From Thermoanaerobaculia bacterium (GTDB lineage: Bacteria; Acidobacteriota; Thermoanaerobaculia; UBA5066; Gp7-AA6): a stretch of DNA of 64,000 nucleotides. The notes beneath the pieces were generated by a model. The model was not told where the DNA came from. It saw only the letters and a program-made list of their open reading frames with translations, and did not search any database. The position numbers and the translations under genes are program-made. The stretch spans positions 7,899-71,898 of the forward strand of contig JBBRFL010000008.1 in NCBI GenBank assembly GCA_038224325.1, given 5' to 3'. Shown piece by piece: positions 1 to 57,653 of this stretch; within the stretch, counting starts at the first letter, position 1, and each line of letters begins with the position of its first letter.

Positions 1-1926
1 GATCTCGACGATTTCCTGGACCCCGGCGAGGCCATCACGTGCACGGCGACTTACGTCGTGACCCCGGCAGACGTGTCGGCGAAGTTCGTCACGAACGTTG
101 CCTTCGCCACCGTATCCGGCGTCAACTCGCCGACCGACAGTCGGACCGTGCCGCTGCTGGCTCCGCCGACGATCGGGAAGTCGTTCGCGAGCTCGACCGT
201 CGCGCTGGGGGCCAACGTCAACATGAACCTGGTCTTGACCAACCCGGGCGGCTCAACGCTGACCGGGTTGTCCTTCATGGACACGCTGCCAACCGGACTG
301 ACCGCCCCGAACGGGACGACGGCAACCTGCGGGGGAAGCCTCGTCATCACCGGCAACAGCCTCTTGAACTTCTCCGGTGGGACGTTGGCCGGCGGCGCCA
401 GCTGCACGATCACCGTGAGCGTGACCGGAACTACCGCCGGGGTAAAGAACAATACGACCGGACCAATCAGCTCGAATGAGACGGGTGTCGGGGCTACGTC
501 GAACACAGCGACGGTCACGGTCCTCGCGCCGCCCACGGCGGTCAAGCTGTTCGCGCCCAACCCGATCGTGACGAACGCGGTCTCGGTCCTCACGATCACG
601 CTGTCGAACGCGAATCCGCTCGCGATCACCGGCGCCGCCTTCAACGACGTCTATCCGGCTGGCCTGATCAACGCGACGCCCGCCAATCCCCTGACGACCT
701 GCCCGGGCGGGACGGCGACTGCCGCCAACGGCGGCAACTCACTGTCGCTCTCGGGCGCGACGGTTCCTCCGGCGGGCAACTGCGCGGTCACGGTCAACGT
801 GACTAGTGCCACCGCGGGAAGCTACCTTAACGCCACCGGACCGATCACTACGGGAAACGCCGGGACCGCAGCCTCCGCGAGCGCGACGCTGGTCGTCAAC
901 ACACCCACACCCACACCCACGCCCACTCCGACAGCGACCCCCACCCCGACGGCGACGCCGACTCCGACCAGCACCCCGACGAGCACTCCCACACCGACGC
1001 CGACGAGTACGCCAACGAGCACGCCGACCAACACACCCACGAATACTCCGACCCACACGCCGACCCTCACTCCAACCAATACCCCGACCAACACTCCGAC
1101 CAATACACCCACCCATACGCCGACCGCGACCCCGACTCTCACGCCGACGAACACTCCGACGAACACGGCGACCAGTACGCCGACGAACACGCCCACCGAT
1201 ACGCCCACGACCACTCCGACTCAGACGCCCACCCGAACGTTGACCAGCACCCCGACCAACACGACCACCAATACGCCCACGACCACTCCGACACTCACTC
1301 CCACTGCCACCGCGAGTCCGACTCAAAGCCCCAGCCCGAGCTCGACACCGACGGTGACGAACACGGTCACCCGCACTCCGACCACGACGCCGACGGCCGC
1401 GCCCGGCACGCCGACCGCGACTCCGACGGTGGGATCCGGAACCCCCACGCCCAGCCCGACCCCCGCCGTATCCGCGGATCTCGCGATCGAGAAGACGGCC
1501 TCTCCGGACCGTCCGATCCCCGGGGCGGACCTCGTTTACACCTTGACGGTGACGAACCTGGGGCCGGCGGTCGCGACCGGCGTCCAGGTCACCGACCCGC
1601 TCCCCTCCGGAGTGACCTTCGTGAGCGCGACGCCGTCTCAGGGGACCTGCACCGGCGGCACGACGGTCTCGTGCGACCTCGGCACCCTCGCGTCGGGCTC
1701 GACGGCGACGATCTCGATCGTCGTGCACGTCGGGATCGGGGGCCCCTTGGTCAATCGCGCCACGGTAAGCGGAAACGAGCCGGATCCCAACGGTTCCAAC
1801 GATTCCTCGACCGCGATCACGACGATCGAGGGGTCCAGCATCCCGACGCTCTCGGGCCTGGGGCTGCTCGTCCTGGCCGCCGGCCTTCTCGGCATCGCGC
1901 GCCTCCTGCTGCGCGGCGGCGAGTAG
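1..1926 (+). CDS. Secreted cell-surface repeat protein, 5-prime partial, with tandem Ig-like/DUF11-type modules, a Thr/Pro linker of about 190 aa and an IPTL-CTERM-like sorting signal
   Basis: Frame 1 is open from nt 1 ([20 protein letters not shown]...), so the listed ATG at 58 is internal. There are repeated modules of about 120 aa ([10 protein letters not shown]...TLPTGL...TCGG...[13 protein letters not shown] and [10 protein letters not shown]...[12 protein letters not shown]). A DUF11-like module follows ([12 protein letters not shown]...[32 protein letters not shown]...[15 protein letters not shown]). The C-terminus is [28 protein letters not shown]: motif, hydrophobic helix, then basic tail. 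Confidence 0.8.
901..1465 (+). repeat. Imperfect tandem repeat encoding a (T-P-T-x)n low-complexity linker inside the surface protein
   Basis: The translation reads [72 protein letters not shown]... for about 190 residues. The DNA shows a 6/12-nt period (acNccgacc-type units). Confidence 0.9.
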
Positions 1927-7019: not shown

Positions 7020-8162
7020 GTGACCCTGCCGGCCGATCTCGTCATTCCCGCGGCCGACATGGCCCTCCTCAGGGAGATCGCGTCGTGGGACTCCGTCCGG
7101 CTGGCGAGCTTCGCCGCGTCCGACTTCCCGGTCGACGTGGTCCGGTTCGAGGGCTCCACGTCGCCTCCCGTGGCCGTCTCGCGGGCCCGGCGCGCCGAGA
7201 CCCTCAAGGCGATGCCGGCGAGCCTCCGCGAGCGCGCGCAGGCCGCGTTCGATCGGGCCGCCCGCGCCCCGGCTCACCTCGCGCTTGCCCACGGCCGCCA
7301 CCTGGACCTCTCCGGCGGCCCGGCCGTCATGGGGGTCGTCAACGTCACTCCGGATTCCTTCTCGGACGGAGGCCTGCATCTCGATCCCGCGCGCGCGATC
7401 GAACGGGCCCTCGAGATGTACGCGGAGGGAGCGGCCATCGTCGACGTCGGCGGGGAATCCACGCGGCCGCCGGCGTACGGCGAGGCGGTGGAGCTGTCGG
7501 CGGACGAGGAGACCTCCCGCGTGCGACCCGTGATCGCCGGAATCCGCGCCCGAACGGACGCCCCGCTGTCGATCGACACCCGCAAGGAGGCCGTGGCCCG
7601 CGAAGCGCTGTCGGCCGGGGCCGACCTGGTCAACGACGTCTCCGGAGGCCGGTACGACGAGACCCTGATCGCCGCCGTCGCGGAGCACGGCGGTGGCGCT
7701 ATCCTCATGCACATGAAGGGCACCGATCCCCGCCGGATGCAGGACGACCTGCGCTACGACCATCCCCTGGGCGATGTCGCCTCGTATCTTGCGCGGGCGG
7801 CGGACCGAGCGATCGGCGCGGGGGTCTCGACCGGCGCGATCGCCGTGGATCCCGGCCTGGGCTTCGGCAAGAGCCTCGAGGGAAACCTCACCCTCCTGCG
7901 CCACCTCGCGGCCTTTCGCTCCCTGGGCTTTCCCCTCTGCGTCGGAGCGTCGCGGAAGGGGTTCGTCCGCCGATTCTCCGGCGTCACGGAGGACGGGCCC
8001 GTCGCCGACCGCCTCCCCGGTTCCCTGGCAGCCCTCGCGGCGGCCGTCGCCGGCGGCGCCGCGATCGTGCGCGTGCACGACGTGCCGGAGTCGGTTCGAT
8101 TCGTGCGCATGCTGCTCGCGATCGACCGGACGTCTCCGGCAGCCGAGGCGCCCGTCCGGTGA
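7020..8162 (+). CDS. folP: Dihydropteroate synthase, with an N-terminal extension of about 100 aa if the GTG at 7020 is used
   Basis: Contains MGVVNVTPDSFSDGG, DVGGESTRP, SIDT, NDVSG and GASRKGF. An in-frame stop lies at 7008-7010. An internal ATG at 7212 is an alternative start. Confidence 0.9.
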   Translation: MTLPADLVIPAADMALLREIASWDSVRLASFAASDFPVDVVRFEGSTSPPVAVSRARRAETLKAMPASLRERAQAAFDRAARAPAHLALAHGRHLDLSGGPAVMGVVNVTPDSFSDGGLHLDPARAIERALEMYAEGAAIVDVGGESTRPPAYGEAVELSADEETSRVRPVIAGIRARTDAPLSIDTRKEAVAREALSAGADLVNDVSGGRYDETLIAAVAEHGGGAILMHMKGTDPRRMQDDLRYDHPLGDVASYLARAADRAIGAGVSTGAIAVDPGLGFGKSLEGNLTLLRHLAAFRSLGFPLCVGASRKGFVRRFSGVTEDGPVADRLPGSLAALAAAVAGGAAIVRVHDVPESVRFVRMLLAIDRTSPAAEAPVR

Positions 8163-8943: not shown

Positions 8944-9654
8944 ATGCAGATCTCACGCCTCCTCTTCCGGAACCCGGGCACCAAGCTCCTGGCCCTCGTC
9001 ATCGCGTGCGCGGCGTGGTACGTCCTCTCCGGCGAGCGGCGCGAGCGGACCTCGGAGCGGAGCTATCGGATCCCCCTGTCGATCGTGAACATCCCCGCCG
9101 GCACCGTCATCGTCTCTCCCCTGCCCGACGCCCTGGACGTCCGGATCCGGGGATCCTTCACGACCCTCCGCCAGCTCGAGCCGGCCAAGCTCGAGGCCGT
9201 CATCGATTTACTGGGAGCCTCCCAGGGCGAGAAGCGGTACCCGCTGGAGCCGGAGGACATCAACGTACCCCGGGGCGTCGAGGTCATCGCGATCGCTCCC
9301 TCCGAGCTGCGGATCTCTCTCGACGCGGTCGCGGAGAGGATCCTTCCCATCGTGCCGGAGATCACGGGCTCCTCGGTGCCCGGGTCGAACGTCGAGGAGA
9401 TCGCGGTCGAGCCGCGGAACGGCCGCGTGAGCGGGCCCGCCCGGACGCTCGCGCGCCTGACCGCCCTGCGGACCGAGCCGGTGTCCGTCGAGGGCCGGGA
9501 CGGCCCGTTCACGGCGACGACGATCCTGGCAACCCAGCCCGCCGGGGTCCGCGTGCGCGAGGGACAGCTCGTCACGGTCCGCGTCCGGATCCGGCCCGCG
9601 CCGCCGCCGGCTCCGACTCCGCATCCGAGGCCGACGCGCAGGGCGCGACCGTGA
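8944..9654 (+). CDS. cdaR: YbbR-domain CdaA regulatory protein
   Basis: ATG at 8944, 2 nt after cdaA. It has an N-terminal TM helix followed by YbbR-like repeats (RIPLSIVNIPAGTVIVSPLPDALDVRIRG..., VPEITGSSVPGSNVEEIAVEPRNGRVSGP). It occupies the canonical position between cdaA and glmM. Confidence 0.75.
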   Translation: MQISRLLFRNPGTKLLALVIACAAWYVLSGERRERTSERSYRIPLSIVNIPAGTVIVSPLPDALDVRIRGSFTTLRQLEPAKLEAVIDLLGASQGEKRYPLEPEDINVPRGVEVIAIAPSELRISLDAVAERILPIVPEITGSSVPGSNVEEIAVEPRNGRVSGPARTLARLTALRTEPVSVEGRDGPFTATTILATQPAGVRVREGQLVTVRVRIRPAPPPAPTPHPRPTRRARP

Positions 9655-10982
9655 AGCTCTTCGGAACCGACGGGATTCGCGCCCTCGCAGGGGAGTTCCC
9701 TTTGGATCCCGCCTCGATCCGGCTGCTCGGCCGCGAACTCGGGCGCCGGCTCGCGGAGCGGGGAGGCGGGCGGCGGGTCGTACTGGGAGGCGACACGCGC
9801 GAGTCGACTCCGCGGATCGTCGCGGACCTCGCCGCGGGCCTACGCGAAGGCGGCTGCGGGGTCGCCGCCGCGGGCATCATCACGACGCCCGGGGTCGCGG
9901 AGCTCGTGCTCGAGCTCGAGGCGTCCGCGGGCGTCGCCGTGTCCGCCTCGCACAATCCGTACGACGACAACGGGATCAAGATCTTCGGCGCCGACGGGCG
10001 CAAGTGGCCCGACGACCAGGAGGAGTACCTCGAGAAGAAACTGGTCGACGCCCGCTCGGAGCCCGAGGTCGTGACGACACCGCCGCCGCCCGATCCGGAT
10101 CCGGGCCTCATCGCAACCTACGTCTCGCGCCTGAAGGGAAGCGTCCCCGAGAGTCTCCGCGGGCTCCCGGTCCTCCTCGACGCCGGCAACGGCGCCGCGT
10201 TCCAGATCGGGCCGCGCGCGTTCCTCCGCGCGGGCGCCGCGGTCACGTCGATCCACGACGCTCCGGACGGGCGCAACATCAACCGCGACTGCGGGGCGCT
10301 CCACCCGGAGGAGATGGCATCGCAGACGCGCGAGTCGGGGGCGGCGCTCGGGGTCGCGTTCGACGGCGATGCCGATCGGTCCATCTTCGCCGACGAGACC
10401 GGGCGCGTCCTGGACGGCGACGACGTTCTCTGGATCATCGCCCGCGACTGGAAGCGGCAGGGACGCCTGACTCCGGGCGGAGTCGTGGGGACGGTGATGT
10501 CCAACTTCGGGCTCGAATCCGCCCTGGCCCGGGAGGGAATCGCGTTCCGCCGGGCGTCGGTCGGCGACCGCAACGTCGCGAAGACGATGGACGAGTCGGG
10601 AGCCGTGCTCGGCGGCGAGAACTCGGGGCACATCCTGCTCGCTCCCCTGTCCCCGGCGGGCGACGGGATCCTGACCGCGCTCGTGCTCGCTTCGATCGTG
10701 CGCTCGAGCGGCGGGGCGCTCTCGGAGCTCGCCACCCTGGAGAAGGTGCCGCAGACCCTCCGCAACGTCCGCGTGACCCGCCGCGTCGCGATCGAGGACA
10801 TGCCCGCGGTGCGGGAGGCCCTGGCCCGCGCCGAGGACACCCTCCGCGCGCGGGGGCGCGTCTTCCTGAGGTACTCCGGCACCGAACCCCTGCTGCGGAT
10901 CCTGGTCGAGGGCCCCGACGCCGCCGAGGTCGGCGCGATCGCCCGCGACCTCGAGGCGGTGGTCCGGGCCGAGCTGACGTGA
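9651..10982 (+). CDS. glmM: Phosphoglucosamine mutase
   Basis: The GTG at 9651 overlaps the cdaR stop. The N-terminus is VKLFGTDGIRALAGEFPLD. The active-site loop SASHNPYDDNGIK and the motif GGENSGHIL are present. Confidence 0.95.
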   Translation: MKLFGTDGIRALAGEFPLDPASIRLLGRELGRRLAERGGGRRVVLGGDTRESTPRIVADLAAGLREGGCGVAAAGIITTPGVAELVLELEASAGVAVSASHNPYDDNGIKIFGADGRKWPDDQEEYLEKKLVDARSEPEVVTTPPPPDPDPGLIATYVSRLKGSVPESLRGLPVLLDAGNGAAFQIGPRAFLRAGAAVTSIHDAPDGRNINRDCGALHPEEMASQTRESGAALGVAFDGDADRSIFADETGRVLDGDDVLWIIARDWKRQGRLTPGGVVGTVMSNFGLESALAREGIAFRRASVGDRNVAKTMDESGAVLGGENSGHILLAPLSPAGDGILTALVLASIVRSSGGALSELATLEKVPQTLRNVRVTRRVAIEDMPAVREALARAEDTLRARGRVFLRYSGTEPLLRILVEGPDAAEVGAIARDLEAVVRAELT

Positions 10983-11689
10983 GGGGGATCCGCGCGATCC
11001 TCTTCGACGCGGGCGGCACGCTCATCCACATCGACGGGCCGCGCTTATGCGAGGCCGCGGGGCTGACCTGGGAGCCGGAGGGGTTTCGCCGCGCGGAGGC
11101 GGCGGCGGTGACCGCGTTGCGGGCGTTCGTGCTCGAGAATCCGGCCGCGCGCGACTCCGTGCGATTGCCCCGCTACCTCTCCGAGATCCTCGGCGGCCTG
11201 GGGCTCGACTCACCCGCGGCCCGAACCGAGGCGGGGCGCCGCGTGGAGGCCGAGCACCGCCGCGCGAACCTCTGGTCGCGCCCGGGACCCCGCGCGGCGG
11301 AAACGCTCGCCGCCCTCTCCGCGCGAGGCTACCGGATCGCCGTCGTCTCCAATGCGGACGGGCGCGTGCGCGCTCTCCTGGACTCGGCCGGCCTGTCCCC
11401 GTGGCTCGAGTTCGTCGTCGACTCGGCGGAGGTCGGCGTCGAGAAGCCGGATCCCCGGATCTTTCACGAGGCGACGGGCCGGCTGGGAGTTCCCCCGTCG
11501 GCCTGCGCCTACGTCGGAGACATCTACGAGATCGACGTCGTCGGGGCGGCCGCCGCGGGCCTGACGCCCGTGCTCATCGGCGGCGGCCCGGCTCCCGAGC
11601 AGGTGCTGCGGGTGGCGGGTCTCGACGAGCTCCTCGGCCTGTTCCCAGGCGTCCCCCGCGAACGCGCGGCGCCGTCTCCGGCCCCGTGA
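10979..11689 (+). CDS. HAD-superfamily hydrolase
   Basis: The GTG at 10979 overlaps the glmM stop. HAD motif I (ILFDAGGTL), motif II (VVSNADG) and motif III/IV (YVGDIYEIDVVGA) are present. Confidence 0.8.
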   Translation: MRGIRAILFDAGGTLIHIDGPRLCEAAGLTWEPEGFRRAEAAAVTALRAFVLENPAARDSVRLPRYLSEILGGLGLDSPAARTEAGRRVEAEHRRANLWSRPGPRAAETLAALSARGYRIAVVSNADGRVRALLDSAGLSPWLEFVVDSAEVGVEKPDPRIFHEATGRLGVPPSACAYVGDIYEIDVVGAAAAGLTPVLIGGGPAPEQVLRVAGLDELLGLFPGVPRERAAPSPAP

Positions 11690-11699
11690 TCGCGGGGGT

Positions 11700-11912
11700 T
11701 CAGTACCGTTCCACGTCCGGCGGAGGTCCGCCCACGACGTTGGGCTCCTGGAAGACGACGGCGGAAGCGGCGATCGGGACGTACACCGTATGGTTACCCG
11801 CTGCAAGGTCCACGCGGCACTCGTAGTAGCCCTGCGGCGAGACGCTCATCAGGAGCGCAGGCTTGTTCTTGAAGTCGAGCATGGGGCAGAACAGGATGAC
11901 CTTGCTGAGCAT
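11700..11912 (-). CDS. Small hypothetical protein (70 aa) coupled to ligA
   Basis: The ATG lies 6 nt after the ligA stop, with aggag inside the ligA 3-prime end. Third-position GC is high. I recognise no family. Confidence 0.5.
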   Translation of the reverse strand: MLSKVILFCPMLDFKNKPALLMSVSPQGYYECRVDLAAGNHTVYVPIAASAVVFQEPNVVGGPPPDVERY

Positions 11913-18070: not shown

Positions 18071-18787
18071 ATGGAGCAGTCGCTGAGGGGAAAGGTCGCG
18101 CTCCTGACGGGAGCCTCTTCCGGGCTCGGCCGCGCGTTCGCGACCGCGCTCGCCTCGGCCGGGGCGAAAGTCTTCCTCGTCGCCCGGCGCGAGGAGAGGC
18201 TACGCGAGGTCGTGCGCGAAATCACGGATGCGGGCGGGGACGCCGCGTACCACGTCGCGGACGTTCGGGTGGTGCCGGCGCTCTACGACCTCGTGGACGT
18301 CGTCCTCTCGCGGCACCGCCGGCTCGACATCCTGATCAACAACGCGGGCCTCGGATACCGTTCGCCGCTCCTCGAGACGAAACGGTCCGAGATCTGCGAG
18401 ATGCTCGAGACGGATCTGCACGCCGCCATCTTCCTGACCCAGGCGGCGCTGAACGCGCTCCTGAAGAGCGTCCCCTCCGACATCGTCAACGTCGCCTCCA
18501 TCGCCGGTCTCGAGGGGTTTGCGGAGGGCACGGTCTACTGCGCCGCCAAGGCCGGGCTCGTGGGGTTCTCTCGCGCGCTCGCCGCGGAGCTGAAGCCGGC
18601 CAACGTCCGCGTCACGGCCCTCTGCCCGGGGTCGGTCGACACCGAGTTCTTCGAACGCTACCAGCCGACCATAGATCGCCCGCGGATGCTCTCCGTGGAC
18701 GACGCGGTGCGGGCGCTCCTCTACGTCCTGACCTCGCCCTCGAACGTCGTTCACGGCGAGGTCGTGCTTCGACCCCGCGTGGTCTGA
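18071..18787 (+). CDS. SDR-family oxidoreductase
   Basis: Contains TGASSGLG, NNAG and YCAAKAG (YxxxK). Start chosen at MEQSLRGKVALLTG. Confidence 0.9.
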   Translation: MEQSLRGKVALLTGASSGLGRAFATALASAGAKVFLVARREERLREVVREITDAGGDAAYHVADVRVVPALYDLVDVVLSRHRRLDILINNAGLGYRSPLLETKRSEICEMLETDLHAAIFLTQAALNALLKSVPSDIVNVASIAGLEGFAEGTVYCAAKAGLVGFSRALAAELKPANVRVTALCPGSVDTEFFERYQPTIDRPRMLSVDDAVRALLYVLTSPSNVVHGEVVLRPRVV

Positions 18788-18842: not shown

Positions 18843-19535
18843 ATGCCCTCCATCCTCCTTGTCGACGACAGCGGTCTGTTTCGAGGGGCGGCCAAAGAGG
18901 TCCTGAGCCGAACCGGCTGCCAGACCATTGCCGCCTCCGGGGGAACCGAAGCGCTCGACATCGTGCGCCGCGAGCGGCCGCAGATGCTCGTGGTCAGCTC
19001 CGGAATGAAGGGCATGACGGGGCTGGACCTCTGCCGTGTCCTGAAGGCGGACCCCGCGTTCTCCCGGATGCCGATCGTCCTCGTGTGCGCCTCCGGAACC
19101 GAGGAGGCCGCGGCCGAGGCCGGAGCCGACGCCGTCCTCGCCGAGCCCCTGAACCCGGAGGCGATGTTCGCCGCGGTCCGAAGGTTTCTCCAGATCATGC
19201 CCCGGGAGGAGGCGCGGTCTGCCGTCGAGTGGTCGATCACCTTCTGGCGGGACGGCCTGCAACACACGGGCACGATCCGGGATCTCTCCCGCGGAGGCTT
19301 CTTCGTGAAGACGCCCGTCCACCAGCCCGTCGGAGCGCGCGTGGAGGTGTCCTTCGACGTGCCGGTCGAGCACGGCGTGCGCAACGTCGTGGCCGAGGCG
19401 ATGATCGTCCGTGTCGGCCGCGAGCCGGACGCGGGGCTGGGTTGCCGGTTCTTCCAGCTCTCCGCGGGCTCGCGGGGCCACCTGGAGGAGTGCCTCACGA
19501 TCCTCGCTCTCGGGGAGACACCCGCCCCGTCCTAG
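18843..19535 (+). CDS. Receiver-domain plus PilZ-domain protein; the receiver appears to lack the phospho-acceptor Asp
   Basis: The N-terminal CheY-like fold starts ILLVDDSGLF. The position of the acceptor Asp reads MLVVSSGMKGMTG. The C-terminal PilZ motifs REEAR...DLSRGG (RxxxR, DxSxxG) are present. Confidence 0.75.
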   Translation: MPSILLVDDSGLFRGAAKEVLSRTGCQTIAASGGTEALDIVRRERPQMLVVSSGMKGMTGLDLCRVLKADPAFSRMPIVLVCASGTEEAAAEAGADAVLAEPLNPEAMFAAVRRFLQIMPREEARSAVEWSITFWRDGLQHTGTIRDLSRGGFFVKTPVHQPVGARVEVSFDVPVEHGVRNVVAEAMIVRVGREPDAGLGCRFFQLSAGSRGHLEECLTILALGETPAPS

Positions 19536-19590: not shown

Positions 19591-20019
19591 TTAGAGCGAC
19601 AGGTCCACCAGCTCGATCCCCGCCTCCTTCGCCACCTGGATCGATCGCTCGTCGCGATAGAACTCGCCGAAGTAGACGCGGGAGAGGCCCGCATTGGCGA
19701 TGAGCTTGAAGCATGGCCAGCAGGGGCTGGCGGTCGTGTACAGCTCGGCTTCGCCGATCGCGACCCCGTTGCGCGCGGCCTGGATGATGGCGTTGGCCTC
19801 GGCGTGCACGGTCGAGACGCAGTGGCCGTCCTCCATCACGCAGCCGACGTCGCAACAGTGCGGCATTCCCCGGATCGAGCCGTTGTACCCGGTCGATAGG
19901 ATCGTACGATCGCGAACGATCACGGCGCCGACGTGCTTGCGCGGGCAGGTGGAGCGCGTCGCCACCTGGTGGGCGATGTTCATGAAGTACGTGTGCCAGT
20001 CGACGCGTTGTTCCGTCAT
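19591..20019 (-). CDS. dCMP deaminase (ComEB-type cytidine/deoxycytidylate deaminase)
   Basis: Zinc motifs HAEANAI and PCWPCFKLI are present. Start chosen at MTEQRVDWHTYFMNIA. Confidence 0.85.
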   Translation of the reverse strand: MTEQRVDWHTYFMNIAHQVATRSTCPRKHVGAVIVRDRTILSTGYNGSIRGMPHCCDVGCVMEDGHCVSTVHAEANAIIQAARNGVAIGEAELYTTASPCWPCFKLIANAGLSRVYFGEFYRDERSIQVAKEAGIELVDLSL

Positions 20020-20075
20020 CGCGGGGATTATGCCTGACGGGTCAAGCACGGCCCCGCGTATGGCAGAATCGGCGC

Positions 20076-21302
20076 GTGCCACGGGATCGCCGCGTCGTCA
20101 TCACGGGGTTGGGCGCCGTCACGTCGATCGGCGGCTCCGTGGCGGAGTTCTGGCAGAACCTGCTCGCCGGCGCCTGCGGCATCGGGCCCTTCACCCTGTT
20201 CGACTCCTCGGCCTACCGCACCCAGACCGCGGCGCAGGTCTCCCACATCCCCGACGCCTTCTTGACGGCCGGGCAGCGGCGGCGGATGTCGCGCGCCGAT
20301 CGCATGGGCGTCGCGGCCGCGCGCGAGGCGATCCAGGCATCGGGCCTCGACATGGCCCGCGAGGACCCGACCCGCATCGGCGTCATCCTGGGAGGGGGGA
20401 CCTCGGGCCTGATCGACTCGGAGGCCTTCTTCGAGCGATACCTGCGCGGCCGCAAGGCGCGGCCCTCGAAAGTCCTCAACCACCTGCCCGACTCGATCAC
20501 CGACAGGGTGGCGCAGCACTTCGGGCTCCAGGGCGTCAAGTCGACGATCACCACGGCCTGCTCCTCGTCCGCCAACGCGATGGGCTACGCCTTCGACGCC
20601 ATCTCCGCGGGCCTCGCCGACGTCGTCCTGACCGGCGGCTCGGACGTCCTCGCCCGCTTGACCTACGGCGGATTCAACTCGCTGCGGTCCGTGGACCCCG
20701 CCCCGTGCCGGCCCTTCGATCGCGAACGAAAGGGCCTCTCGATCGGTGAGGCCGCCGGCATCCTCGTCTTCGAGGAGGAGGGGCGCGCGCGGCGGCGGGG
20801 CGCGCCCGTCGTGGCGGAGTTTCGCGGCTACGGCGTGACGTCGGACGCGCACCACATGACCGCTCCGGATCCCTCGGGGGAGGCCGGCGGCCGGACCCTG
20901 CGCGCCGCGCTGCGGGACGCGGGCGTCAACGCCGACGAGGTCGACTACGTCAACGCGCACGGCACGGCCACGCCGCAGAACGACTCGGCCGAGACCGCCG
21001 CGCTCAAGAACGCGCTCGGCGACCGGGCCGCCCGGATCCCGATCTCCTCGATCAAGTCGATGATCGGGCACTGCCTCTGCGCCTCCGGGGCGATCGAGGC
21101 CGTCGCGACCGCCCTCACGGTCCGGGACGGAAAAGTGCCGCCCACGATCCACTACGAGAACCCGGACCCGGCCTGCGATCTCGACTACGTGCCCAACGAG
21201 GCGAGGGACCGGGACGTTCGCGTCGCCCTCTCGAACTCCTTCGCGTTCGGCGGCAACAGCTCCGTCGTGGTGCTCGCGCGCTACGACGGCGCGCCCGCCT
21301 GA
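20076..21302 (+). CDS. Beta-ketoacyl synthase (FabF/KAS II-like) with an intact catalytic triad
   Basis: N-terminus RRVVITGLGAVTSIG. The Cys (ITTACSSSANAMG) and both His residues (VNAHGTATPQND, SMIGHCLCASGAIE) are present. Confidence 0.9.
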   Translation: MPRDRRVVITGLGAVTSIGGSVAEFWQNLLAGACGIGPFTLFDSSAYRTQTAAQVSHIPDAFLTAGQRRRMSRADRMGVAAAREAIQASGLDMAREDPTRIGVILGGGTSGLIDSEAFFERYLRGRKARPSKVLNHLPDSITDRVAQHFGLQGVKSTITTACSSSANAMGYAFDAISAGLADVVLTGGSDVLARLTYGGFNSLRSVDPAPCRPFDRERKGLSIGEAAGILVFEEEGRARRRGAPVVAEFRGYGVTSDAHHMTAPDPSGEAGGRTLRAALRDAGVNADEVDYVNAHGTATPQNDSAETAALKNALGDRAARIPISSIKSMIGHCLCASGAIEAVATALTVRDGKVPPTIHYENPDPACDLDYVPNEARDRDVRVALSNSFAFGGNSSVVVLARYDGAPA

Positions 21303-21306
21303 GCGC

Positions 21307-22413
21307 GTGGTCTCGCGGGGCGTGGTGACGGGAACGGGAGCGGTCGGGGCACTGGGCCGGAGCGCCCCGGAGTTCTATCGACGCCTGCGCAACGGCGAGA
21401 CCGCGATCCGCCCGCTCCGACCGGAGGAGCGCGGGGACCTCCAGGCGACGCACGTCGCGCGGTACGACGGGTTCTCGCCGCAGCCGGAGATCCCCGCGAT
21501 GAAGGCGCGGCGTCTGGACCGAGGCAGCCAGTTCGCGCTGATCGCCTGCTCGCAGGCCGTTTCGGAGGCCGGCTACCGGATCGCCGACGCGCCCGAGCAC
21601 ATCGGGATCGCGATGGGGACCGGCTCCGCCGGGGCCGGCGCGCTGACGGAGTTCCTCCGGGTGCTGCTCACCGAGTCGCCCGAGGCCGCTCCCCCGTTTC
21701 ACTTCCCCAACACGGTCGCCAACGCTCCCGCCTCCCAGGTCTCGATCGAGCTCCGGATCCTCGGCCCCAACGTGACGATCACCCAGAAGGACCCCTCCGG
21801 GCTGAACGCGCTCCTCTTCTCCTGCCTCGCCCTGGACTCGGGCCGGGCCCGGGCGATGCTGACCGGAGCCGTGGACGAGTGGAACGCGGCCTACGCCATG
21901 GGCTTCGACCGGGTCGGCGCGCTGCGCGGGGCCCGGCGCGTCTCGGGAATCGTGCAGGGCGAGGGCGCGTTCGTCGTGCTCATCGAGCGCGAGGAGGGGG
22001 CGCAGGCCCGCGGCGCGCGGCCGCTCGCGCGCGTGACGGGGATCGGCACGGCGGGAGTGCCGACCGAGCCCTACCGGTTCGCGCCCGACTCGGGGGCGAT
22101 GGAGCGCGCGATTCGCGGGGCCCTGGATGACGCGAAGGCGGCGCCCGGGACGGTCGACCTCTGGCTGCCTTCCCGCGACGGAGTGATCGAGATGGACCGG
22201 GCCGAGGAGCGGGCGATGGACGCGATCTTCGGGACCGCGCTGCCCGCCGAGATCTCGGTGAAGGACGCCATCGGGGAGATGGCGGCGGCCGGAGGGGCGC
22301 AGCTGGTGGCCGCCTGCCGGGCCCTCGCGGATGGCGGCGCGCGCCGCGCGCTGATCAACTCCTTCGGCGCGGGCGGCAACTTCCTCTCCGCGGTCCTGGA
22401 GGCCGCAGCGTGA
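21307..22413 (+). CDS. Ketosynthase-fold partner lacking the Cys-His-His triad (chain-length-factor-like)
   Basis: It aligns to the upstream KS. The Cys position reads TITQKDPSG (Cys to Asp). His1 reads LPSRDGV and His2 reads AIGEMAAAG. It lies 4 nt after the KS stop. Confidence 0.75.
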   Translation: MVSRGVVTGTGAVGALGRSAPEFYRRLRNGETAIRPLRPEERGDLQATHVARYDGFSPQPEIPAMKARRLDRGSQFALIACSQAVSEAGYRIADAPEHIGIAMGTGSAGAGALTEFLRVLLTESPEAAPPFHFPNTVANAPASQVSIELRILGPNVTITQKDPSGLNALLFSCLALDSGRARAMLTGAVDEWNAAYAMGFDRVGALRGARRVSGIVQGEGAFVVLIEREEGAQARGARPLARVTGIGTAGVPTEPYRFAPDSGAMERAIRGALDDAKAAPGTVDLWLPSRDGVIEMDRAEERAMDAIFGTALPAEISVKDAIGEMAAAGGAQLVAACRALADGGARRALINSFGAGGNFLSAVLEAAA

Positions 22414-22880
22414 CCGAGCCCGGCCGCGCGCCCAAGCCTCCGCTGCGCGGTCTCACGATCGAGATCCCCGTGCGGTTCGCGGAATGCGACCCCTATGGCG
22501 TGGTCTGGCACGGCCACTACGTCCTCTACGTCGAGCACGCGCGGGAGGCGCTGACCGGACGCTTCGGCTTCAGCGCCGCCCGGGCGCTCGAGATGGGCTA
22601 TCGCGTTCCCGTGACCCGCCTGCAGCTGGCCTACCGCGCGCCCGCTCGCCCGGATCAGATCCTCCGGGTCACCGCGCGCCTGCGCCCGCCCGCGGTCGCC
22701 CGTCTCGTCATGGACTACGAGATCCGCTCCGAGACCGGGGAGCTCCTCGTATCGGCCGAGACGGAACAGGTCGTAGTCAACGCGGAGGGGGAGTTGCTGC
22801 TCACGCTGCCGGCGGGGCTCCGCTCGCTCTGCTCGTCCATCCTCGAGTTCCAGGACTCGGCGACGGCCGACCCGCCGTGA
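22410..22880 (+). CDS. 4HBT/YbgC-type hotdog-fold acyl thioesterase
   Basis: The GTG overlaps the preceding stop (GTGA). The sequence VRFAECDPYGVVWHGHYVLYVEHAREAL is typical of the 4HBT family and includes the N-terminal Asp. Confidence 0.75.
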   Translation: MTEPGRAPKPPLRGLTIEIPVRFAECDPYGVVWHGHYVLYVEHAREALTGRFGFSAARALEMGYRVPVTRLQLAYRAPARPDQILRVTARLRPPAVARLVMDYEIRSETGELLVSAETEQVVVNAEGELLLTLPAGLRSLCSSILEFQDSATADPP

Positions 22881-23425
22881 AGGAGGCTCGACCGGAGCGA
22901 TCTGGCAACCGGCGATCGGCGTTCTTCGTGGCCCGATTTCTCGCGCTGCTGGTCGTCCTCTATTTCGTGGTCGCATCCCACCCCGTGAACGACCGGGTCG
23001 TCGTCCCCTTCACCGCCGCGGTCGCGCGCGTCTCCGCGGCGGTCCTCAACGGGTTGGGAGAGCGGGTGACGGTCGCGGGGACGTCGATCCGCTCCCCCCG
23101 CTTCGCCGTCGAGATCGAAAACGGCTGCAACGGGATCGAGACCGCGCTCCTCTTCGGGTCGGCGGTCCTCGCCTTTCCGGCGCCCTGGAGGCGCCGGCTG
23201 CTCGGGCTCCTCCTCGGGTTCGCGGCGATCCAGATCATCAACCTCGTCCGGGTCGTCACGCTCTTCTGGGTCGGCGCGCACAGGCCGGCGCTCTTCAACG
23301 CGTCGCACACCGTCGTGTGGCAGTCGATCGTCGTGCTGTGCGGCGTGCTCCTGTTCCTGCTCTGGGCCGCCCGCGAGGGCCGCGCGGGCGGTGGGGCCGC
23401 GGATGGCGCGCCGGACCCGCGCTGA
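22877..23425 (+). CDS. xrtH: Small exosortase-family protein, most consistent with exosortase H (IPTL-CTERM-specific)
   Basis: The GTG at 22877 overlaps the thioesterase stop. The protein is 183 aa and polytopic. It carries the exosortase signature residues: Cys in FAVEIENGCNGIETALLF, Arg in IINLVRVVTLFW and His in NASHTVVWQS. A protein with an IPTL-type C-terminus is present at 1..1926. The subclass call is from memory of the family definition, not from a search. Confidence 0.6.
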   Translation: MKEARPERSGNRRSAFFVARFLALLVVLYFVVASHPVNDRVVVPFTAAVARVSAAVLNGLGERVTVAGTSIRSPRFAVEIENGCNGIETALLFGSAVLAFPAPWRRRLLGLLLGFAAIQIINLVRVVTLFWVGAHRPALFNASHTVVWQSIVVLCGVLLFLLWAAREGRAGGGAADGAPDPR

Positions 23426-24017
23426 GCGGCCCGCGGCGCCGGCCATCCGGCTCGACGCCGGCGCCGCCCTGCGCGCGGCGATCGGGTTCGGAGCCGCGCT
23501 CCTGGTCTGGTTCGCCTTTTCGGCGCCCTACGAGACCACTCTGGCGGCGGCCGCGCAGGCGGTGATCCGGCTCGGCGAGCGCCCGTCCGTGACGGCGCTG
23601 GCGTCCTCGGGGGGAGAGATTCGCGTCGATCGCGCGGACTTTCCGCCTTCCTCGCCGCGCCCGGGCCTCCCCGCCGCCGACACCCACTTCAACTTCGTCC
23701 TGCTGTCGGCGCTCTTCGCCCTCGCGCCGCATCCCCTGCGGGCGCGCCCCTTCGGGCGCTTCTGGATCGCCGCCTGCCTCCTGTGGGCGATCCACGTCGC
23801 GGCGATGGTGTTCGAGGTGGAGGCGCTGTACGCGACGCGGCTGGGTTCCTGGAGCGAGGCGCACTACGGCCCGGTCGCGCGCAACCTCTGGGCGGCCGGG
23901 TTTCACTTCTACCAGATCGCCGGGCGCTTCGCGGCGCCCTTCGCGTTGTGGTGGATGCTCGGAAGGCCGGAAGAGGAGGCCGTCGCTCCGCGGAGGCGAA
24001 AGGGCGAGAGAGCCTAG
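23391..24017 (+). CDS. Hydrophobic membrane protein downstream of the exosortase (candidate exosortase-associated partner)
   Basis: It overlaps the xrtH 3-prime end by 35 nt. About four hydrophobic segments are visible (AAIGFGAALLVWFAF, FNFVLLSALFALAP, FWIAACLLWAIHVAAMVF, FHFYQIAGRFAAPFALWWML). Confidence 0.6.
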   Translation: MGPRMARRTRAERPAAPAIRLDAGAALRAAIGFGAALLVWFAFSAPYETTLAAAAQAVIRLGERPSVTALASSGGEIRVDRADFPPSSPRPGLPAADTHFNFVLLSALFALAPHPLRARPFGRFWIAACLLWAIHVAAMVFEVEALYATRLGSWSEAHYGPVARNLWAAGFHFYQIAGRFAAPFALWWMLGRPEEEAVAPRRRKGERA

Positions 24018-25114
24018 CCCCGCCGGCCCCGCTCCCGCCGGAGATATCGGTAGTCCGGGATCGCGAACTCCTTGAGCTTGGCGATGAGCGAGCCCCGGGA
24101 GATGTTGAGGATCTGCGCGGCGCGGCTCTGATTCCCCTCGACCCGCCGCATCGCCCGGTCGATCACCTCGCGCTCCACCGTTTCCACGATCTTCTTGAGA
24201 TCGTCGGTCTGGCGCAGGACGTTCTCGGCGGGAGTGGACTCCGGGGCGGCCGCCGCCGGGGCGAGGGAGAGCTCCATCGTCTGTCGAACGCCCGGCTGCA
24301 CCGAGGAGAGGTCCGACACGGACAGTCCCGCGAACGCGACGCCCGCCACCTGGACGAGCTCCTCCAGAAAGAGGACCGCCCGGGCCGCCAGGCGCGGGCT
24401 CTCGCGCACGAGGATCGCGGCGCAGCCCGAATCGCACGACGGTTCGACGATCAGGGTCAGCATGCCGGTCACGGTCTCGGCGCGGGCGAGGCGTTCTCCG
24501 GAGCGCACCTCCTGGACCATGCGGGGCGGCAGCATCGGGTTCTCGCGGAAGGTCGAGGCGAGCGGGCGGAAACCGGCGAGCGCGGAAAACTCGCCGATCG
24601 CCCATTCCGAGGGCGGCAGCTCGCGATCGAGGAAGTCCGTCAGCTCCGTGGCGAGATCCTCGGCGGAACGGGCGCCGCGACAGAGGCGGTACGAGGCCAC
24701 CCTCAGGCCGCGATACTCGACCTCGGTGACGGGAAGGGCGGGGGCCGCGGAAACCGCCGCCGGCGGCGGCGTCGGGGTGTCTCCCCCGGGGAACTCGCCG
24801 ACGGGAGTCGGGCGCATCGCGGGCGCGGTTTCGACCACGATGATCGTGGCCTCGCCGATCGTGATCCGGTCCCCGGGCGCGATCGCTCCTCCGAAAAACT
24901 CCCGCCCGTTGACCTGCACCGTCTCGATGCCCTTGAAGAGATCCAGGTGATACCCGCCGTCGCGCTCGAACAGCCGCAGATGGCGACCGTACACGCCCCG
25001 GGCGCGAACGACGACCTCATTGCCCGACGAGGCGCCGACCGTCGCGCTCGGACCCGCCAGGCGATGAATTTCTGCACTCGTGCCCGGCCGCCGACGAACT
25101 TCCAGAGTGAGCAT
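24014..25114 (-). CDS. FHA-domain transcriptional regulator with a C-terminal Fis-type HTH and no AAA+ module
   Basis: The N-terminal FHA region reads VGASSGNEVVVRARGVYGRHLRLFERDGGYHLDL...TVQVNGREF. The C-terminus is NQSRAAQILNISRGSLIAKLKEF. The central region could be GAF-like but is unverified. Confidence 0.7.
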   Translation of the reverse strand: MLTLEVRRRPGTSAEIHRLAGPSATVGASSGNEVVVRARGVYGRHLRLFERDGGYHLDLFKGIETVQVNGREFFGGAIAPGDRITIGEATIIVVETAPAMRPTPVGEFPGGDTPTPPPAAVSAAPALPVTEVEYRGLRVASYRLCRGARSAEDLATELTDFLDRELPPSEWAIGEFSALAGFRPLASTFRENPMLPPRMVQEVRSGERLARAETVTGMLTLIVEPSCDSGCAAILVRESPRLAARAVLFLEELVQVAGVAFAGLSVSDLSSVQPGVRQTMELSLAPAAAAPESTPAENVLRQTDDLKKIVETVEREVIDRAMRRVEGNQSRAAQILNISRGSLIAKLKEFAIPDYRYLRRERGRRG

Positions 25115-33563: not shown

Positions 33564-33788
33564 GAAAGGTCCGGAAGGAGTACGAACGAAGGCCATCGTC
33601 TACAAGGGCCCAAGGGGCGGACCCAGAGAATCAACGATTTACCGCTGGGACAGGCGCGGGCGACCCTTGCACCGGCGCGTTGGAATAGAATCTCCGCCTT
33701 GCTAGACTCAGAGCTCCACTCCCCGAAGCCGCCCGTTAAGCCGCCCTCCGCCGGCTTCGAGCACGGCGAACGGTCGGAGTCCTTTCAG

Positions 33789-34811
33789 ATGGGCTCCGTG
33801 GAGCAGCCGCACCGCGAGCGCGCGCAGCGGATTCTCAAGCAGCACCCCGAAGTCCGCCAGCACATCGGAACGAATTCGAACACTTTTTGGATCATGCTCG
33901 CGATCATCGCCGCCGAAGTCGCAATGGCGGCCGCCTTGAGCTCCAGTCCGTGGTGGCTGATTCTCCTCGCGGCCGCGTTCGTGGGCGCGTTCCTCAGTCA
34001 CAACCTCTGGGTCATCATCCATGAATGCACGCATAACCTGGTCTTCCGCTCGCGCGCGGCCAACACGGTGTCCGGCATCATGGCCAACCTGCCGCACCTC
34101 TTCCCGAGCGCGGTGCTCTTCGGGCGCTATCACGCGCGGCACCACGCGTTCTTGGGAGTCTACGAGCTCGACGCGGACCTCCCCTACCGATGGGAGGCTC
34201 GCCTCATCGGACGATCCGCCGTCCGCAAGACGATCTGGATGATTCTCTTCCCGATCGTGCAGTCGATTCGGCCCGCTCGCCTCAAGGAGATCAAGCCCAT
34301 CGATCGATGGGTCGTCCTCAACTTCGCCGCCCAAATCCTCTTCGACATCGCGGTCTGGCGCGTGCTGGGCCCGGGAGCATTCTGGTTTCTCTTCGCTTCG
34401 TTCTTCCTCGCCCTCGGGCTGCATCCGCTGGGGGCCCGCTGGATCCAGGAGCACTACATCTTCGCGGACGGCCAGGCCACGTCGAGCTACTACGGATTCA
34501 TCAATCGATTCGCGCTGAACATCGGCCACCACAACGAGCATCACGACTTTCCGTCCGTGCCGTGGAACAAGCTCCCCGTGCTCCGGCGCACCGCCCCCGA
34601 GGAGTACGACACGCTCCACAGTCACCGGTCCTGGACGCGGGTGCTGTGGCAATTCCTGTTCGATCCGGAGATGTCCCTCTACTCGCGGCAGGTCCGTCCG
34701 CGTCCCGGCCGGGTACGCGTGAACGATGAGAAGAATCACGACGTGGAGCTGATCGAGTCGGACTCGCCGGACCTCGCCGTCTCGCGCGCGACGCCCGCCG
34801 CGACGTCCTAG
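33789..34811 (+). CDS. Sphingolipid (dihydroceramide) delta-4 desaturase homologue, DEGS/Lipid_DES plus FA_desaturase type
   Basis: Full-length collinearity with animal DEGS1 as I remember it. The N-terminus is MGS...QPHRERAQRILKQHPEV. The His boxes are IHECTHN, RYHARHHAFLG, GLHPLGARWIQEHY and GHHNEHHDFPSVPWNKLP. The C-terminus is SWTRVLWQFLFDPEMSLYSR. I prefer the ATG at 33789 to the TTG at 33699. Confidence 0.85.
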   Translation: MGSVEQPHRERAQRILKQHPEVRQHIGTNSNTFWIMLAIIAAEVAMAAALSSSPWWLILLAAAFVGAFLSHNLWVIIHECTHNLVFRSRAANTVSGIMANLPHLFPSAVLFGRYHARHHAFLGVYELDADLPYRWEARLIGRSAVRKTIWMILFPIVQSIRPARLKEIKPIDRWVVLNFAAQILFDIAVWRVLGPGAFWFLFASFFLALGLHPLGARWIQEHYIFADGQATSSYYGFINRFALNIGHHNEHHDFPSVPWNKLPVLRRTAPEEYDTLHSHRSWTRVLWQFLFDPEMSLYSRQVRPRPGRVRVNDEKNHDVELIESDSPDLAVSRATPAATS

Positions 34812-45749: not shown

Positions 45750-47158
45750 GGATCGACCCGCTCGGGCTTGGGGTCGCTCTCACCCTCGCCCTCTCGTTCG
45801 CCGCGCTGGGCGAGGTTATCCTCTGGCGGCGATCGCTCGACCCCTTCTCCTGGAACGAGTCGTTTCTCGTGGGCGCGGGGACGAGCGCCGCGGTCCTCTT
45901 CCCGCTCTCGCTTCTGAGCCCGAGCGGGGCGCTGCGATGCGTCTTCGCGGCGCTCGCCTTCGCGCTGGCGGGAATCGTCATTCGAGAAATCGCCCGGCGG
46001 CCACGGGCTCGAAACGCGGGAGGGAACCGGGCCGGACTCCCCTGGCGCCGGGATCCCGTGGCGCTGGCCTTGCTGGCCGCGCTCGCGCTCGTCGTCGTGG
46101 CGTTCACGGCCCTCGTCCTGAGGTACAGCCACTTCTGGGACGGCTTCCAGATCTGGGCGACGAAGGCCCAGCTCCTGTACTTCCGGGGCGCGCTGAGCCG
46201 CTTCTGGTTCCCGGAAGACGCATACGACTCGCGGATCCTGGAATACCCGCCGCTCGTGCCGCTTCAGGAGGCGCTCCTGAGCATGGGCCGCGGCCGTTTC
46301 GACTTCGACGCCGTCAAGCCCGTGTTCCTGCCGCTCTACGCCTCGATGCTGCTCTCGACCTTCGCCGCCGCCCAGTCGGCGACCGGATCGGTTCGCGCGG
46401 CGCTCGCGGCGGCGCTTTTGCTGGCGCTCCTGCGCCAGGCCTCGGCGGGGACCGCGGCGGGAGGATACGCCGACATGCCCCTGGCGGCGTTCGTCGCGGG
46501 CGCCGTGGCCGCGGGGCTTCGATCGGGCGCGACGAGAGGCGGCGGGAGCGCGGCCCTCCCCTGGCTTGTCGGATCGCTGACGACCGTCAAGTCGGAGGGA
46601 ATCCTCCTCGCCGGGGCGGGCTGCGCGGCCGTCCTGGCGTTCTGGGCCCTGGAGGCACCCCGACGCGCGTTCGCGCGGGCGCTCGCAAGCTGGCGAGGCG
46701 TTGCCGTCGTTCTCGCGTTCGTCGGAATCCGCGTCGCGTATGTCCGCTGGCTGGGCATACACGACATCACGTACGGGCCGCTCGACGCCGCTCACTTCGA
46801 GAGGGCGCGACGGATTCTCGGGACGGTGGCCCGCGTCTGCGCTCGCGTGGCGATGGATCCCGCGTCGTGGGGGTTCTTCTGGCCGGCGTTCCTCGTCGCG
46901 GCGGCTCTCGTCGCGGTGCTCGGCGCGAACCGCGAACGGTCGCTCGCTCTGGCCGTCGGTGGCGCCATCGCGATCGACACGACCATCTTTCTCTTCACGA
47001 ACTGGGACCCGGAGCTTCAGATCACCCAGGCCTATCCCCGCCTCCTCCTCCAGGTCGCGCCCGCGGCGGCCGTCGTGATCGCGACGGGTTACGTCCGCGC
47101 CCGGAAGGCCGTCGCGCCGACCGGCCTTCGGGCGACTGGCGAAGGCGCGTCTCCCTGA
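45746..47158 (+). CDS. Polytopic membrane protein, possibly a GT-C-fold glycosyltransferase
   Basis: It has ten or more hydrophobic segments. One loop (FWDGFQIWATKAQLLYFRG...ILEYPPLVPLQEALL) resembles ArnT/PMT-type GT-C loops. The TTG at 45746 overlaps the preceding stop, so the start is uncertain. Confidence 0.5.
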   Translation: MRIDPLGLGVALTLALSFAALGEVILWRRSLDPFSWNESFLVGAGTSAAVLFPLSLLSPSGALRCVFAALAFALAGIVIREIARRPRARNAGGNRAGLPWRRDPVALALLAALALVVVAFTALVLRYSHFWDGFQIWATKAQLLYFRGALSRFWFPEDAYDSRILEYPPLVPLQEALLSMGRGRFDFDAVKPVFLPLYASMLLSTFAAAQSATGSVRAALAAALLLALLRQASAGTAAGGYADMPLAAFVAGAVAAGLRSGATRGGGSAALPWLVGSLTTVKSEGILLAGAGCAAVLAFWALEAPRRAFARALASWRGVAVVLAFVGIRVAYVRWLGIHDITYGPLDAAHFERARRILGTVARVCARVAMDPASWGFFWPAFLVAAALVAVLGANRERSLALAVGGAIAIDTTIFLFTNWDPELQITQAYPRLLLQVAPAAAVVIATGYVRARKAVAPTGLRATGEGASP

Positions 47159-57139: not shown

Positions 57140-57643
57140 TTAGTGACCGTCGGCGGGCTCCGGCCGCCCCGGGAGCGGCTGCTCGCCGCGCTCGAGACGC
57201 CGGGCGAAGATCGCGTCGAGCGACAACGGACCCGCGCCGTACGCGCCCAGCCAGAGGCAGAGGACGATGTAGAGATACTCGGCGAAGCCGAAGAGATCCG
57301 AGAGCTCGTGGACCTCCGCTCTCTTCGCGGTCACGATCGCGACGAGCATCGTGCCGATCAGCGGAAGGGTGGCCAGCCGCGTGCACAGGCCCAGGAGCAT
57401 CAGCGCTCCGCACAGGAGCTCCGCTCCCGCGGCCAGCGGCGCCTGAAACCGGGGCGCCGGAATCCCGAGCTGCGTGAAGAACGCGATCACCTTGGGAAGG
57501 TTGTTCAGCTTTCCCCAGCCGGACTGGAGGAAGATCCATCCGAGCGTCAACCGGGCCACCGTCGGCGGCAGCCAGCGCAAGCCGGTCGCGACCCGGAGGA
57601 TGAGGCGGCGGAGGCGCGAGATCCGATCGGTCGACGTCGGCAT
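57140..57643 (-). CDS. DoxX-family membrane protein
   Basis: Start chosen at MPTSTD, preceded by the SD aggagg. The sequence LTLGWIFLQSGWGKL...FFTQLGIPAP...APLAAGAELLCGALMLLGLCTRLATLPLIGTMLVAI is typical of DoxX. Confidence 0.8.
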   Translation of the reverse strand: MPTSTDRISRLRRLILRVATGLRWLPPTVARLTLGWIFLQSGWGKLNNLPKVIAFFTQLGIPAPRFQAPLAAGAELLCGALMLLGLCTRLATLPLIGTMLVAIVTAKRAEVHELSDLFGFAEYLYIVLCLWLGAYGAGPLSLDAIFARRLERGEQPLPGRPEPADGH

Positions 57644-57653
57644 GGTGTTCCTC

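Follow-up and report, generated by a model that had tools for sequence, protein, structure and literature searches.

A putative acyl-chain module coupled to the exosortase H pair in one clade of Thermoanaerobaculia

In the exosortase A (EpsH1) system, an acyl-CoA ligase, an acyl carrier protein (ACP), a decarboxylase and hydrolases are associated with the exosortase (TIGR03098-TIGR03101), and the molecule to which bacterial exosortase substrates are attached is, to my knowledge, still unknown. For the archaeosortase ArtA the answer, a lipid, came from following gene linkage of a similar kind: the lipid-synthesis genes pssA and pssD lie in synteny with artA in Methanosarcina, and in Haloferax the anchoring of proteins to lipid by ArtA needs the homologues of these two genes (PMC7157517). 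In anammox bacteria, an active FabF homologue and a homologue lacking the catalytic triad form a heterodimer resembling a ketosynthase/chain-length-factor (KS/CLF) pair, which starts fatty-acid synthesis (bioRxiv 10.64898/2026.05.19.726425). Here I describe a five-gene operon in a 64-kb stretch of DNA (64,000 nucleotides, hereafter the window; G+C about 70%) from a metagenome-assembled genome (MAG) of Thermoanaerobaculia (Acidobacteriota), a class of uncultured bacteria from soil. The operon encodes a ketosynthase (KS), a dead KS-fold partner (KSL), a hotdog-fold thioesterase (TE), a short exosortase H (XrtH) and a membrane protein, the partner of XrtH. The original prediction for this locus had placed five co-directional open reading frames (ORFs) at the coordinates confirmed here (Table 1), and its identification of KS, dead KS partner, thioesterase and exosortase was upheld throughout by profile hidden Markov model (HMM) searches.

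I favour the explanation that this is a lineage-specific composite operon joining two modules able to exist apart, and I consider it about evenly balanced between right and wrong. One genome per GTDB species was scanned with a seven-sequence XrtH alignment as query, and the best 80 of 343 relatives were kept; these 80 XrtH loci are 49-79% identical, all come from Thermoanaerobaculia or unclassified Acidobacteriota, and the locus counts given here rest on tblastn of thirteen window proteins against them. While the partner gene lies directly downstream of XrtH in 78 of the 80 species loci, with varied flanks, the genes for KS, dead KS and TE (the triad) lie directly upstream of XrtH in 25, all members of one largely syntenic clade, and this difference supports the two-module reading. 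No KS or TE is found within 10 kb in 41 loci for which at least 4 kb of upstream sequence is present, the upstream sequence is too short to judge in 12, and two loci (L078 and L065) are partial or distant cases. Elsewhere, the genes on either side of the XrtH pair are unrelated housekeeping ones, namely SMC, UvrA, DnaE, GuaA, MarC or pyrR-pyrB-pyrC (the pyr genes being named by reading the sequences). As a general rule, a need of XrtH for the acyl module is excluded. The earlier idea that a KS/CLF-like pair and thioesterase are hard-wired to exosortase H generally has to be given up on these counts, and the enrichment of KS and TE genes beside XrtH that was to be looked for exists in the one clade and fails elsewhere, which comes close to refuting that idea. 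Named close homologues of XrtH, of its partner and of the dead KS are almost all from MAGs of Thermoanaerobaculia or Acidobacteriota; a myxobacterial origin, to which weak matches to the models gmx_TIGR02266 and EspA had pointed, was rejected for this reason.

Within the clade, the five-gene order of the window recurs in 25 other species genomes. The junction between TE and XrtH is -4 nt in 22 of 27 linked-clade loci; four of the other five lie no more than 20 nt from abutting, and the last is incomplete and gives no value. The recurring gene order and the 4-nt overlap make the arrangement more than chance, the predicted co-expression of the modules is maintained across the clade, and the tight coupling of TE to XrtH that had been proposed is kept, within this one clade. 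The median identity to the window proteins is 86% for KS, 79% for KSL (range across the triad-linked clade 69-85%), 81% for TE, 73% for XrtH and 66% for the partner, compared with 75% for SMC. Both the -4 nt overlap and the standing of KS and KSL among the best conserved of the five proteins lend support to the two-module reading. The synteny extends further: the majority of the 25 loci share most of a 17-kb block that runs from the M1 peptidase to SMC, and the FHA/HTH_8 regulator is present in 22 of them.

Two lineages carry the triad, and the second, L078, falls in a clade apart from the linked clade in a neighbour-joining tree of XrtH plus partner, a tree that is only indicative because the proteins are short. 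The gene order in L078 is a response-regulator receiver-PilZ gene (RR-PilZ), dCMP deaminase, KS, KSL, TE, then 4.7 kb of minus-strand genes (methyltransferase, glyoxalases, ArsR regulator, AHSA1-like protein, histidine kinase), XrtH, partner and an FHA-sigma54-HTH_8 regulator. The latter is a longer protein in the position of the window regulator, and by gene clustering L065 has a member of the same family at this place; synteny of RR-PilZ with the KS triad is seen in both triad-carrying lineages. Upstream of XrtH, L065, which is related to L078, carries two genes for hotdog thioesterases and one HMGL-like gene (7086-8070) and no KS pair, which suggests that it may hold only part of the acyl module. 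In the same tree, a subclade of four loci (L020, L024, L027, L031) is nested in the triad clade; these have XrtH and its partner, and no triad in the sequence at hand (less than 4 kb upstream in L024 and L027). The separation of the modules in L078 and the nested subclade without the triad are further support for two modules, and the association of triad and XrtH amounts to one, at most two, evolutionary events.

The exosortase reaches 125.2 bits against the TIGR04177 model for XrtH (cut-off 86), and the exosortase HMM check attached to the original prediction is thereby passed; the next models, XrtM (76 bits) and XrtX (73 bits), stay under their own cut-offs. It also matches the TIGR04178 signature model (59 bits, cut-off 23), and when it is aligned with 52 diverse relatives of 28-51% identity, C84, N122, R125 and H144 do not vary. 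The protein is one residue shorter than the 183 aa first noted. Its AlphaFold2 (AF2) model has a pLDDT of 78.2 and found no match in the PDB with Foldseek at E <= 0.001, and a tblastn search of plasmids with XrtH returned three matches only, all of them XrtM.

As had been proposed, the protein encoded at 1-1926 ends in an IPTL-type signal: IPTLSGLG is followed by a hydrophobic, transmembrane stretch and then by the basic RLLLRGGE. This tail is the only one of its type in the whole window, the 64 kb of the genome covered here, and it scores 10.4 bits against TIGR04174 (IPTL-CTERM), under the cut-off of 20.5. IPTL-tailed proteins are seldom found beside XrtH; the window and L031 have one each. 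The C-terminal part of the same protein (1327-1923) also gives a weak match to NF033207, 'midcut-by-XrtH protein' (19.9 bits, cut-off 45).

The window copy of the partner protein has no match in Pfam/NCBIfam scans, in which NF041730 was not reached at E <= 1 and PF28117 was not among the models scanned. Its homologues, which are 25-65% identical to it, match NF041730 ('exosortase H-associated membrane protein') in 27 of 31 cases, with a best E-value of 9.2e-11, and some close ones carry PF28117. The guess that the fifth gene encodes an exosortase-associated membrane protein was therefore a good one, and because of these 27 matches the pairing of XrtH with the partner is already curated knowledge. 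Homology and conservation show the identity and the unity of this predicted sorting unit.

The partner family is moreover similar to the XrtH family itself. In hhalign the two align colinearly over 108 columns with a score of 37.2 (probability 68%, E-value 4.8e-5) and with Cys84 of XrtH opposite Asp97 of the partner, while the eleven controls (the reversed XrtH profile and ten block-shuffled ones) did not exceed a score of 23.5 and 39 columns. The AF2 model of the partner (pLDDT 83.8) found no PDB match with Foldseek at E <= 0.001; it has the same order of elements as that of XrtH: a long helical segment at the N-terminus, then three short strands, one helix of 16 residues, one of about 32 residues and, at the end, another long helix. 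I consider it somewhat probable that the partner is a Cys-less paralogue of XrtH. As a dead paralogue it would suggest that short exosortases act as pairs of enzyme and pseudo-enzyme.

Turning to the acyl module, KS passes the NF005589 model of a FabF subfamily (424.7 bits, cut-off 387) and stays under the cut-off of the FabF equivalog TIGR03150 (424.4 bits, cut-off 493.75). The Cys-His-His reported earlier for KS is intact (motifs TACSSS, AHGTAT and IGHCL), and the loss of all three catalytic residues in KSL is equally borne out: KSL is 27% identical to KS, with the catalytic Cys changed to Asp, one His to Ser and the other to Glu. Aromatic CLFs have Gln at the Cys position. The KSL motif GPNVT(I/V)TQKDP is kept in five relatives with identities down to 44%. 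Among PDB chains, KS is closest to FabF (355 bits), followed by 9s5h_B (340 bits), and it also matches the actinorhodin KS and the ishigamide KS; KSL matches 9s5h_C and the CLF chains 6kxd_B and 1tqy_B. The entry 9s5h may be the anammox complex. A tblastn search of plasmids with KSL returned generic KS genes alone, at about 30% identity. TE passes PF13279 (4HBT_2; 53.2 bits, cut-off 25.5), scores 39.8 bits against PF03061 and remains under the cut-off of the narrower TIGR00051 (59.6 bits, cut-off 68.7).

KSL has the KS fold without the catalytic Cys and its gene stands beside that of an active KS, as in a CLF or KS-beta; it departs from a minimal polyketide synthase (PKS) in having no ACP of its own. 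No ACP, ketoreductase (KR), dehydratase (DH) or enoylreductase (ER) is encoded within the five-gene operon, as had been stated at the outset, and no ACP-like ORF was found in the 64-kb window by a DSL-motif scan, nor any PP-binding domain in Pfam scans of the window genes. Gene scans further along the window found no other fatty-acid or polyketide genes, except for a desaturase 10 kb downstream (33699-34811, + strand) with a sphingolipid-desaturase-like N-terminus, which has an equivalent position in L001 and L002. An aryl-polyene or highly reducing type II PKS cluster was considered and rejected because ACP, KR, DH and an exporter are absent; an acyltransferase is missing as well, and the flanks are housekeeping. 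A FabG-like short-chain dehydrogenase/reductase (SDR) is encoded 1.3 kb upstream of KS (18212-18787, + strand), with the RR-PilZ and deaminase genes intervening. Of the 25 triad-clade loci, 20 have it in synteny, while a search beside the L078 triad did not detect it; it is a possible ketoreductase for the acyl module.

In the proposed composite operon, the first module would be the exosortase H sorting unit. In it XrtH, a transpeptidase-like membrane protease with the Cys/Arg/His signature, would pair with the partner that nearly always accompanies it, a probably non-catalytic paralogue. Together they would process proteins that carry a C-terminal signal of the IPTL type, among them the one whose gene ends at 1926. 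The second module would be a minimal chain-building unit, in which, from what is known of the family and by analogy, KS and its dead paralogue would form a KS/CLF-like heterodimer. I infer, likewise by analogy, that this pair would draw on the ACP of housekeeping fatty-acid synthesis and extend malonyl- or acyl-ACP up to a fixed length, and that the hotdog thioesterase would release the finished chain. In one Thermoanaerobaculia clade both modules would have become fused in a single translationally coupled transcript, so that they would be produced jointly, in the simplest view to serve a common envelope programme. The relatedness of partner and XrtH and the anammox precedent of a dead FabF beside an active one agree with this two-module reading. 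The data do not call for a direct chemical use of the acyl product by XrtH; going by the gene arrangement, a lipid may be linked to protein sorting in the triad clade.

Several observations weigh against a composite of separable modules. The 4-nt coupling has been kept over family-level divergence (SMC down to 61% identity), which would fit a direct functional dependence too, and in L078, a second and distant lineage, triad and XrtH are less than 5 kb apart, a hint that the association is older than one fusion event. The survey covered the surroundings of XrtH genes only, and the partner protein of the window does not itself reach the NF041730 model.

It is conceivable, though I regard it as unlikely, that the KS/CLF-like pair and TE produce a special acyl chain or lipid for XrtH, which in this clade would transfer IPTL-tailed proteins to it as their acceptor or anchor. 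The overlap of TE stop and XrtH start in 22 of the 27 loci, the presence of the triad near XrtH in two distant lineages and the lack of a known exosortase acceptor are all in keeping with such a direct role, as is the archaeal precedent of artA in synteny with pssA and pssD (PMC7157517). However, the 41 loci with adequate flanks and no KS or TE within 10 kb speak against it, as do the apparent loss of the linkage in the nested subclade and the unrelated opposite-strand genes that part the modules in L078, and since the clade shares most of the neighbourhood in syntenic order, the adjacency of triad and XrtH does not count as independent evidence. What TE would release is moreover a free fatty acid, which lacks an amine or hydroxyl head group and is thus no obvious acceptor for transpeptidation, and the operon has no acyltransferase or head-group enzyme. 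A more detailed proposal for this clade, in which KS, dead KS and TE would make a dedicated acyl lipid and XrtH, as a heterodimer with its Cys-less paralogue, would anchor IPTL-tailed surface proteins with it, I judge improbable.

Alternatively, the arrangement may be an accident of gene order: the triad would serve general or specialised membrane fatty-acid synthesis unrelated to sorting, and the loss of a spacer would have given a meaningless read-through operon. That KS passes a FabF subfamily model is in line with this, and so are the setting of the operon among housekeeping genes (tilS-like, ftsH, folP-like, cdaA, ligA, FTHFS, smc) and the fact that the L078 triad retains its upstream neighbours, dCMP deaminase and RR-PilZ, though detached from XrtH. 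Yet an exact 4-nt overlap of stop and start in about 25 species argues for selection on co-translation, KS stays under the FabF equivalog cut-off, and a dead partner and a thioesterase are unlike the housekeeping fab layout; I therefore hold an accident to be quite improbable. The composite operon of two separable modules remains the explanation that I prefer.

Table 1. Coordinates of the operon, its neighbours and the candidate substrate in the 64-kb window
Feature	Position	Strand	Remarks
KS, FabF-type	20076-21302	+	408 aa; PF00109, PF02801, NF005589; same start in public record
KSL, dead KS-fold partner resembling chain-length factor	21307-22413	+	PF00109, PF02801
TE, 4HBT hotdog-fold, YbgC/FadM-like	22410-22880	+	PF13279, PF03061
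XrtH, short-form exosortase	22877-23425	+	182 aa; TIGR04177
XrtH-associated membrane protein	23403-24017	+	204 aa from ATG 23403 (public-record start); longest ORF from GTG 23391
FHA-like and Fis-type HTH_8 regulator	24014-25114	-	PF16697, PF02954
dCMP/ComEB-type deaminase	19591-20082	-	PF00383; TIGR02571 155 bits
Response-regulator receiver and PilZ (RR-PilZ)	18843-19535	+	PF00072, PF07238
Candidate XrtH substrate	1-1926	+	repeat-rich surface protein; three DUF7933, two DUF11; IPTL-type tail; truncated at window start

The operon is limited upstream by the divergent dCMP deaminase and downstream by the convergent FHA/HTH_8 regulator, whose gene overlaps the end of the membrane-protein gene by 4 nt. 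It had been claimed that all five genes are joined by 4-nt overlaps or gaps of at most 5 nt. This holds for the first three junctions (a 4-nt gap between KS and KSL, 4-nt overlaps between KSL and TE and between TE and XrtH), but not for XrtH and the membrane protein, the genes of which overlap by 23 nt (ATG 23403) or 35 nt (GTG 23391). The longest ORF of the dCMP deaminase begins 7 nt inside the start of KS (20076-20082) and would leave no intergenic space for a promoter; the domain matches begin at residue 25-28, and its start is therefore probably further in.

The upstream flank is mostly housekeeping, with a PP-loop protein (tilS-like), FtsH, a pterin-binding enzyme (folP-like), CdaA, LigA, the M1 peptidase, YdjM, the SDR and the receiver-PilZ protein, and downstream follow formate-tetrahydrofolate ligase (FTHFS) and SMC. 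Elsewhere in the window, 49494-52991 (- strand) encodes one protein of 1165 aa that combines group-1 and family-2 glycosyltransferase domains. At the right window end, a DUF2063 protein adjoins a MbnB/TglH/ChrH-type (DUF692) enzyme for the modification of precursors of ribosomally synthesised and post-translationally modified peptides (62305-63946, - strand), with a DoxX membrane protein near the pair (57140-57664). Two regions, 9006-11806 and 45937-49497, have an atypical codon-position G+C, and gene calls there are unreliable.

A literature search on XrtH, on IPTLxxWG and on exosortase together with ketosynthase found nothing relevant, and no paper describing the linkage, which had been thought undescribed. 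With its translational coupling of XrtH to a putative chain-building module, this clade offers a concrete and testable candidate for the acceptor, and if the reading as acyl-lipid anchoring were true, it would be the first genomic handle on the acceptor of a bacterial exosortase. Because most XrtH systems work without the triad genes, any lipid link would be an accessory of one lineage.

Among described systems, that of exosortase A resembles the window in that acyl-handling enzymes are encoded with the exosortase, but its enzymes are of other families and are not known to include a KS or CLF, and it has another exosortase subtype and a PEP-CTERM signal. With the exosortase H system (TIGR04177, NF041730, TIGR04174) the window shares an XrtH above its cut-off with the Cys/Arg/His signature, a partner directly downstream and an IPTL-tailed protein. 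It differs from the standard system in the three acyl-chain genes fused upstream in the operon, and from the models in that the partner protein and the IPTL tail both stay under the cut-offs; the window sequences are also acidobacterial.

As in anammox amxFabF2/amxFabFmut (bioRxiv 10.64898/2026.05.19.726425), ishigamide Iga11/Iga12 (PDB 6kxd) and the actinorhodin KS/CLF (PDB 1tqy), an active FabF-like KS stands beside a paralogue without the catalytic triad, and both KS and KSL match chains of 6kxd and 1tqy, from KS/CLF systems of the type II PKS or fatty-acid-synthase-like kind. Unlike these systems, the window operon is without a dedicated ACP, KR and DH, and the Cys position is taken by Asp in KSL versus Val or Thr in amxFabFmut (bioRxiv 10.64898/2026.05.19.726425). 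The comparison with archaeosortase ArtA and PssA/PssD (PMC7157517) is of a different kind. The ArtA partners are phospholipid head-group enzymes, whereas those in the window are condensing enzymes, known here from genomes alone, in a linkage absent from most XrtH loci. However, in both cases a sortase of the same superfamily is encoded beside lipid-biosynthesis genes, and as the partners of ArtA proved necessary for lipid anchoring, the archaeal case keeps the idea of an anchor alive for the triad clade (PMC7157517).

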